Assembly: GCF_044324785.1 (NCBI RefSeq)
Contig: NZ_CP172127.1
From: Escherichia coli
Lineage (GTDB): Bacteria > Pseudomonadota > Gammaproteobacteria > Enterobacterales > Enterobacteriaceae
Direction: 5' to 3' (one strand)
DNA length: 64,000 nt
Positions 22,616 to 24,990 of the stretch are shown piece by piece. Positions within the stretch are counted from its first letter, which is position 1; each line of letters starts with the position of its first letter. Below the pieces are notes generated by a model. The model ran no database searches. It was not told the origin of the DNA and saw nothing but the letters and a program-made list of their open reading frames with translations. A program made the position numbers and the translations under genes.

Positions 22616-23426
22616 AATCGGTAACTAGCTGTTATATTCTGAATTATTACAATAGCGTCAGGCCTCATAATTACACTGTGGGTTGACGCCGGAAGAATCA
22701 GAGAACAGATACCGTTCTTACTGTAAAACGTGGCTAATATTAATTGAGCACTGCAGTGTTCAGAGCACAAAGAAGAAAAAAGATGTGTGCGAATGCCTGT
22801 AATGTGTTAAAAGAATGTTCCGCGTTTCCGGTACGCTTTTCGTAACTAACAATGCAGGGTGACGTAACGCTGGTTGTGCCGGAAACGCGTCCCTCCCCCT
22901 ATCTTTCCTGTTTGGATTTGCCCCTATATTTCTGGATTATCCGACAAAACCGGCGTGAAGTATTACTCTCGTCGCCCAGCACCATAAGGATAACGCCCAT
23001 AAAATCATGAAACTTTTCTTCCAGATTGGATACAATCAGGCCGTATCCCGTATTACAGGCTTATCACGTGTGACAGTCAGTCTCTGGGTGTGTTCAGGAA
23101 CATTCCCTGAAATGTCAACCCGGCCTCCAGAGCGAGGACTTCTGGCCCCATGGAGGGAGTGGTTAAAAGAGCAACGAGAAAGTGGTAACTTCGGCGCGTG
23201 GCTGCAAGGATGGCAGCTGATGCTGCGGCTATATGTGAGGCAATCGGCAGTCGCTGGAATAATGGGGGTTGTCGAAAGTCATGTAAATAGACTAAAAATG
23301 CTGAAAGGCCAGATGTATGGTCGAGCCGGATTTGAACTACTCAGACAGAGGGTCATGAGTCCACTGGCATGAAAATCTCCATCCAGGTTGCGTAAGAGCC
23401 ACTTTTCATCCGTCGTCGATATCTGG

Positions 23427-24621
23427 GGAAGGTGCGAACAAGTCCCTGATATGAGATCATGTTTGTCATCTGGAGCCATGGAACAGGGTTCATCATGAGT
23501 CATCAACTTACCTTCGCCGACAGTGAATTCAGCAGTAAGCGCCGTCAGACCAGAAAAGAGATTTTCTTGTCCCGCATGGAGCAGATTCTGCCATGGCAAA
23601 ACATGGTGGAAGTCATCGAGCCGTTTTACCCCAAGGCTGGTAATGGCCGGCGACCTTATCCGCTGGAAACCATGCTACGCATTCACTGCATGCAGCATTG
23701 GTACAACCTGAGCGATGGCGCGATGGAAGATGCTCTGTACGAAATCGCCTCCATGCGTCTGTTTGCCCGGTTATCCCTGGATAGCGCCTTGCCTGACCGC
23801 ACCACCATCATGAATTTCCGCCACCTGCTGGAGCAGCATCAACTGGCCCGCCAATTGTTCAAGACCATCAATCGCTGGCTGGCCGAAGCAGGCGTCATGA
23901 TGACTCAAGGCACCTTGGTCGATGCCACCATCATTGAGGCACCCAGCTCGACCAAGAACAAAGAGCAGCAACGCGATCCGGAGATGCATCAGACCAAGAA
24001 AGGCAATCAATGGCACTTTGGCATGAAGGCCCACATTGGTGTCGATGCCAAGAGTGGCCTGACCCACAGCCTAGTCACCACCGCGGCCAACGAGCATGAC
24101 CTCAATCAGCTGGGTAATCTGCTGCATGGAGAGGAGCAATTTGTCTCAGCCGATGCCGGCTACCAAGGGGCGCCACAGCGCGAGGAGCTGGCCGAGGTGG
24201 ATGTGGACTGGCTGATCGCCGAGCGCCCCGGCAAGGTAAGAACCTTGAAACAGCATCCACGCAAGAACAAAACGGCCATCAACATCGAATACATGAAAGC
24301 CAGCATCCGGGCCAAGGTGGAGCACCCATTTCGCATCATCAAGCGACAGTTCGGCTTCGTGAAAGCCAGATACAAGGGGTTGCTGAAAAACGATAACCAA
24401 CTGGCGATGTTATTCACGCTGGCCAACCTGTTTCGGGCGGACCAAATGATACGTCAGTGGGAGAGATCTCACTAAAAACTGGGGATAACGCCTTAAATGG
24501 CGAAGAAACGGTCTAAATAGGCTGATTCAAGGCATTTACGGGAGAAAAAATCGGCTCAAACATGAAGAAATGAAATGACTGAGTCAGCCGAGAAGAATTT
24601 CCCCGCTTATTCGCACCTTCC
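23427..24621 (+). mobile_element. IS5
   Basis: Terminal repeats GGAAGGTGCGAA... (23427) and ...CGCACCTTCC (24621); 1195 bp; full-length transposase. Confidence 0.9.
23495..24475 (+). CDS. IS5 transposase
   Basis: [30 protein letters not shown]..., about 326 aa, matches IS5 transposase as recalled. Confidence 0.9.
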
Positions 24622-24990
24622 TTAACGTTATCCGCTGACGTCGATATTCCCGTGGTGAGAGATAACCTAACGCACTATGCGGATGGTTTTCATTGTAATG
24701 CTCGAACGCCTCTGCAAGGTTATGCAATGCCGTTATTACATTCAGTTTCGGCATGAACGCGATGTAGTCTTCATTCACGTTTTCACGAACCTTTCTGCCA
24801 TTCTATTGCTCTGAGGGCTACTGACTGCCGTCGTGCAGGGCTCCAGATTCAACTCTCTGGCGAATTGCCGTGTTTCATGAGCCGTATAAGCCGAACCGTT
24901 ATCCGTCCGCCACTGGATTGCTCGTTCCGGTCCTTTATCGCCAAAGCGTTTTTCTATCGCTCCTAACATCACATCCTGCACTGTCGGCTT
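24622..24990 (-). pseudogene. IS3-family orfB C-terminal remnant, interrupted by IS5
   Basis: Fragments ...[15 protein letters not shown]... and ...[23 protein letters not shown]...SPQSN..AERF. Confidence 0.5.

Follow-up and report, generated by a model that had tools for sequence, protein, structure and literature searches.

Insertion sequence IS5 normally leaves a 4-bp duplication at its target, which raises the question of what happened at a copy that lies between two different tetranucleotides. One such copy is present in the window, the stretch of 64,000 nucleotides of an Escherichia coli genome analyzed here (RefSeq assembly GCF_044324785.1, contig NZ_CP172127.1). Its left flank is CTGG (positions 23423 to 23426) and its right flank is TTAA (24622 to 24625), and it thus does not show the footprint of a simple insertion, that is, identical 4-bp direct repeats on both sides. 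The duplication is the footprint of a copy's arrival and not a criterion for being IS5. The first-pass annotation had noticed these unlike flanks, in an interval (23423 to 24625) that adds 4 bp to either end of the element, and our analysis agrees with it on this point. The explanation that we consider best, with a probability of roughly 0.85, is that a complete IS5 would have inserted at TTAA and that a deletion anchored at the element, and adjacent to it, would have followed.

The element itself is unremarkable. It is a complete IS5 of 1,195 bp (23427 to 24621, plus strand) and is 100% identical over its full length to IS5 copies from numerous chromosomes and plasmids of E. coli; the matching E. 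coli copies are annotated as “IS5-like element IS5 family transposase.” The ends are fixed because eight independent identical copies, each located in different DNA, start and stop at the same first and last bases as the window copy. The boundaries are therefore mapped exactly, and a shift of the ends to identical flanks, the outcome that the first-pass annotation had named as one that would refute its reading, is thereby ruled out. Repeat comparison delimits two 16-bp terminal inverted repeats on the plus strand, GGAAGGTGCGAACAAG on the left (23427 to 23442) and CTTATTCGCACCTTCC on the right (24606 to 24621), which are complementary at 15 of 16 positions and follow the pattern GGAAGGTGCGAA(C/T)AAG. 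Between them lies an intact transposase gene (23495 to 24475, plus strand; 326 amino acids, RefSeq WP_000019402.1), recognized from its open reading frame, from Pfam, and from the annotation of identical DNA in strain 1517k. The reading frame is uninterrupted, bears the DDE_Tnp_1 domain (1.9e-35) and an N-terminal DUF772 domain (3.7e-21), and, when called mechanically, opens at an upstream ATG at 23459. Compared to IS5 of E. coli (IS5 family, IS5 group; transposase Ins5A, WP_000019402.1), the element shows no difference, with the same length, the same inverted repeats, an intact DDE transposase gene, and a right flank of the YTAR type; the window copy only lacks the left duplication copy of a simple insertion. 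An inverted-repeat search of the window found no second IS5 copy that could have served as a recombination partner. The sole other repeat match in the window was a 16-mer, GGAAGGCGCGAACCAG, at 43287 to 43302, with two mismatches to the IS5 inverted repeat; some other IS5-family remnant may end here.

How unusual such flanks are can be judged from other IS5 copies. Previous work reconstructed 220 IS5 duplications and derived from them a strong 4-bp motif, YTAR, or (C/T)TA(A/G) (PMC5009759). Our controls from E. coli behave accordingly, with a perfect 4-bp duplication in seven of eight copies (CTAA in four, TTAA in two, and AAAG in one), so that the rule on which the first-pass annotation had relied holds both here and in the literature. 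Scanning representative genomes of other species yielded 26 more IS5 left ends, mostly contig-end fragments, among which seven complete copies were usable; three of these have a perfect 4-bp duplication and four have none. Taken over all complete controls, the duplication is present in 10 of 15 and absent in 5 of 15. The missing duplication is informative about the history of the window copy, yet IS5 copies without a duplication are common. One of them, on plasmid unnamed3 of E. coli AR_0085 (L009), has TTAG and TAAG as flanks and adjoins a truncated cvaB; this copy, on a ColV-type plasmid, is probably another IS5-associated deletion or rearrangement.

The two flanks of the window copy differ in how well they suit the element. 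TTAA is a canonical YTAR target of IS5, whereas CTGG is only near-cognate, being one base off CTAG, and does not fit YTAR. Among the left flanks of the controls, 28 of 34 fit YTAR and 6 do not. Two unrelated IS5 copies also have CTGG at their left end, one in Shimwellia (L025) and one in a metagenome-assembled genome of Brevundimonas (L033), where the upstream DNA is different. Because CTGG recurs in these two other copies among only six non-YTAR left flanks, the data suggest that the transposase uses it as a secondary target. The Shimwellia copy (S. pseudoproteus) is flanked by CTGG and CCAG, which are reverse complements of each other and extend the inverted repeat by 4 bp instead of forming a direct repeat.

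The copy is located in a heavily decayed, IS-riddled genomic island of E. coli that carries iha. Along the window, a PhoX-family gene is followed by an IS3-family remnant, the 3′ remnant of an ISL3-family element, IS5, an ISEc48-like orfB remnant, pseudogenized genes of an integrative-conjugative element (families TIGR03756 and TIGR03757), and iha. The first of the remnants (21888 to 22591, plus strand) consists of parts of an IS3-family transposase, orfA with an HTH_Tnp_1 domain and orfB with an HTH_21 domain, as seen from reading frames, annotation, and Pfam. The ISL3-family remnant, including its terminus, occupies 23043 to 23419 on the plus strand and was assigned from a pseudogene annotation and from DNA matches; the reading frame at 23007 to 23372 has no Pfam match, and it is by DNA similarity to annotated ISL3 elements that its origin was recognized. 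To the right of IS5, the 3′ part of an IS3-family (ISEc48-like) orfB remnant, frameshifted and on the minus strand (24622 to 25009), was identified by its reading frames, by the Pfam domains rve and rve_3, by a pseudogene annotation (“integrase core domain-containing protein” in RefSeq), and by alignment to ISEc48 on a pO157 plasmid. The first-pass annotation had IS5 abut an IS3-family orfB remnant. The remnant is indeed there, but the relation is closer than abutment: IS5 is inserted 42 bp inside the terminus of the IS3 element and two codons before the stop of orfB. The remnant has accordingly lost its last two codons, its stop codon, and its 42-bp terminus. Its frame (24584 to 24778, minus strand), which formerly ended in RITLT and a stop codon, now reads into the right end of IS5 and stops at 24584.

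What is missing at this site can be read from the allele without IS5. Comparison with the uninterrupted locus of related genomes, as the first-pass annotation had suggested, showed that 47 complete E. coli genomes carry the same two flanks, collinear, in the same order and orientation, and 843 bp apart. The 1-kb flanks of the window are 100% identical to this IS5-free allele, and in the window IS5 stands in place of the 843 bp. In strain PK8275 (L001), the left flank ends with GATATCTGG and continues with GATAGCC; the right flank is preceded by TATCTTAAG and begins with TTAACGTT, the right junction reading CTTAAG/TTAACG; and the 843 bp occupy positions 4001 to 4843. The tetranucleotide CTGG on the left of IS5 is chromosomal DNA that is found in the IS5-free allele as well (L001 3997 to 4000) and would mark the joint of the deletion. 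TTAA, on the right, occurs once in that allele (L001 4844 to 4847) and would be what survives of the original target-site duplication. The 843 bp encode an SgcJ/EcaC family oxidoreductase of 150 amino acids (SnoaL-like, with Pfam matches to CaMKII_AD, SnoaL_3, and DUF4440) and include the final 42 bp of the IS3 remnant. In the missing DNA the IS3-family orfB frame runs on through R I T L T to its natural stop, and the IS3 terminus continues (TGTTCTTGCCCCC) as it does in an independent ISEc48 copy on a pO157 plasmid. As this DNA completes both the orfB frame and the IS3 terminus, the longer allele is ancestral.

The pattern is that of an adjacent deletion. The DNA that is additional in the IS5-free allele starts exactly at one end of IS5 while the other flank is unchanged, and the retained flank has a normal target, TTAA, at its native position. 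The endpoint of the deletion coincides with the IS5 terminus, with an ambiguity of one base, as the G that follows CTGG in the intact allele is also base 1 of IS5. An endpoint at this place points to the element itself, and not to an unrelated deletion. The comparison with the IS5-free allele thus supports the proposal of the first-pass annotation that this copy mediated a deletion or recombination, and specifies it as an IS5-anchored deletion of 843 bp. On the left side of the deleted segment, the ends of annotated ISL3 transposase genes match the DNA at 93 to 98% as far as L001 3990 to 3993, which corresponds to window positions 23416 to 23419. The ISL3-family remnant thus ends 7 to 10 bp to the left of the IS5 joint (23416 to 23426). 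With the ISL3 terminus this close to the deletion endpoint, nearly the entire non-IS stretch between two dead insertion sequences would have been removed by IS5, which may be a coincidence.

We propose the following order of events. IS5 would first have inserted at TTAA, within a dead ISEc48-like IS3 element and 42 bp from its end. The pre-deletion intermediate is predicted to have a left junction in which TATCTTAAGTTAA is joined to GGAAGGTGCGAA. The left TTAA copy of the duplication and the 843 bp would then have been lost together (847 bp), and the left end of IS5 would have become joined to CTGG, a product in which no duplication remains. The joint would have been made by the IS5 transposase attacking the near-cognate CTGG nearby on the same molecule; that the transposase made it is plausible, not proven, since CTGG is not YTAR. 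There is documented precedent for short IS5-anchored deletions, for local IS5 hopping, and for duplications being lost by adjacent deletion or by recombination between IS copies (PMC5009759; PMC11708052).

Two routes lead to this product, and both are counted within our main reading. The first, to which we give about even odds, is the classical adjacent deletion, in which intramolecular replicative transposition makes the deletion in one step. IS903, itself of the IS5 family, is an established case of this mechanism (summarized in PMC11708052). The second, somewhat less probable, begins with a local hop of IS5 into CTGG in the same orientation, after which the two direct 1.2-kb copies would recombine in a RecA-dependent manner, with loss of one copy and of the 843 bp between them. 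Its predicted product is exactly what is seen, and its first step has good precedent in that 19 new insertions were found less than 1 kb from an existing copy where 1.5 were expected (PMC5009759). Moreover, most IS5 deletions in mutation-accumulation lines involve an existing copy and a presumed new one, which the authors read as a local hop followed by homologous recombination (PMC5009759). However, the new copy was assumed in that work and not observed, and the same authors allow single aberrant events for some classes. Nor does recombination between two copies explain anything extra at our locus, as it needs the same noncanonical CTGG target as the one-step route. An intermediate with a second IS5 at CTGG is predicted to show two further junctions, ATATCTGG joined to GGAAGGTGCG and CACCTTCC joined to CTGGGATAGCC, and among 5,426 complete E. 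coli genomes none has two IS5 copies that bracket the 843 bp. Both routes give the same product, which sequence cannot tell apart. We slightly favor the one-step route because, by our own reading of the data in PMC5009759, IS5 deletions (52) outnumber stable IS5 insertions less than 1 kb from an existing copy (19).

A very different history would have IS5 integrate, without any duplication, into a DNA break, so that insertion and 843-bp deletion were a single event. Such capture has been proposed for duplication-less IS copies at the centers of deletions (PMC11708052), and it would agree with the observation that, at this site, neither IS5 nor the deletion has been seen without the other. The case described there, an IS5-family insertion in E. 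coli C that is located centrally in a 62-kb deletion, likewise has no duplication at the deletion site. However, the insertion in E. coli C belongs to the IS903 subgroup and measures 1,051 bp, whereas the IS5 of the window has a canonical target at its native position; with one flank of this kind, an ordinary insertion, with an adjacent deletion after it, is enough. For capture at a break, the exact placement of the right joint on a canonical TTAA would have to be a coincidence, YTAR comprising 4 of 256 tetranucleotides, and the left joint is at CTGG, a recurring IS5 flank. Even for their own case, the authors of PMC11708052 accept insertion and then adjacent deletion as an alternative. We therefore regard capture during the 843-bp deletion as improbable. 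In a milder version, CTGG would be a true secondary hotspot of IS5 strand transfer that shapes the ends of deletions.

Similarly little weight attaches to a deletion independent of the transposase, in which a normal insertion would have been followed by illegitimate recombination or replication slippage that removed 847 bp and ended by chance at the IS5 terminus. The joint does have a microhomology of one base (G), but one base is no more than chance would give, a random endpoint at the exact end of IS5 is very unlikely, and CTGG recurs beside other IS5 left ends. The weakest of the alternatives, to which we give next to no credence, are recombination with a distant IS5 copy through inversion or translocation, a common cause of mismatched flanks (as exemplified by control copy L036, flanked by TTAG and CTAA) that is ruled out here because the IS5-free allele has the two flanks as collinear neighbors, 843 bp from each other with order and orientation unchanged, and an artifact of assembly or of boundary placement, excluded because five independently assembled complete genomes share the junctions and because the ends are fixed by the eight identical copies.

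These five E. coli genomes (1517k, 98232, VTB97420v, 23CRST007, and 23CRST012) carry the identical IS5 arrangement; queried with IS5 plus 1 kb on each side, each of them matches as one piece with 99.9 to 100% identity. In all five, IS5 at this site comes with the deletion. None of the 5,426 complete E. coli genomes has IS5 at TTAA with the 843 bp retained; a genome of this kind would stand above the matches of 63% coverage, and none is there. The right end of IS5 joined to the right flank likewise has no exact match in metagenome contigs. Nor was a deletion without IS5 found, a synthetic query that joins the two flanks directly having no match across the joint in any complete E. coli genome. 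The absence of an intermediate would be expected if it was short-lived and does not exclude this copy from the adjacent deletions; the order of the events is one that we infer. The genome of the window is distinct from the five; relative to 1517k, BLAST shows differences at 34460 and to the left of 20793. The allele that combines IS5 with the deletion has therefore been passed down in a lineage that comprises the five complete genomes and the genome of the window, and the junctions of CTGG with IS5 and of IS5 with TTAACG make a clean marker of this lineage.

Both differences from 1517k involve mobile DNA. To the left, positions 1 to 20792 of the window belong to a Mu-like transposable prophage that has features of transposase, Gam, Mor, and gp16 and matches Klebsiella phage KP12 (85%) and Escherichia phage PhiKM (95%). 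The prophage ends with TCATGTCTGATCA at the junction 20792/20793, inside the PhoX-family gene, of which strain 1517k has an intact version. In many E. coli genomes this phage end is found at other, varying places in the chromosome, and the junction with the PhoX-family gene is present in no complete genome of the collection. At the other position, strain 1517k has an extra IS3-family copy of ∼1.3 kb (L011 10320 to 11628) that is absent from the window at 34460 to 34463, where the two BLAST segments share 4 bp, the overlap that a target duplication would give.

The locus resembles the IS-mediated adjacent deletions known from IS903 and IS1 and from IS150 in the long-term evolution experiment, and the IS5 deletions between an existing and a new copy in E. 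coli mutation-accumulation lines, in that the ends of the element are intact, one original flank is retained, the other side is lost to a new joint, and no duplication remains. A deletion of less than 1 kb also fits the local bias reported for IS5 (PMC5009759; PMC11708052). Unlike those cases, the joint here is at CTGG and not at a YTAR target, the allele is a natural, lineage-fixed one and not a laboratory event, and no intermediate accompanies it.

An IS5 copy that lacks its duplication through adjacent deletion is a well-known, textbook by-product of IS activity. It explains the missing duplication at this IS5 copy and has little importance beyond annotation, and the recurrence of CTGG beside IS5 ends is a minor point. 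The sole functional loss from the event is a small SgcJ/EcaC-like (SnoaL-like) accessory gene, in a sublineage that has an iha island. The locus is thus one more natural case of the short IS5-anchored deletions that erode the genomic islands of E. coli.
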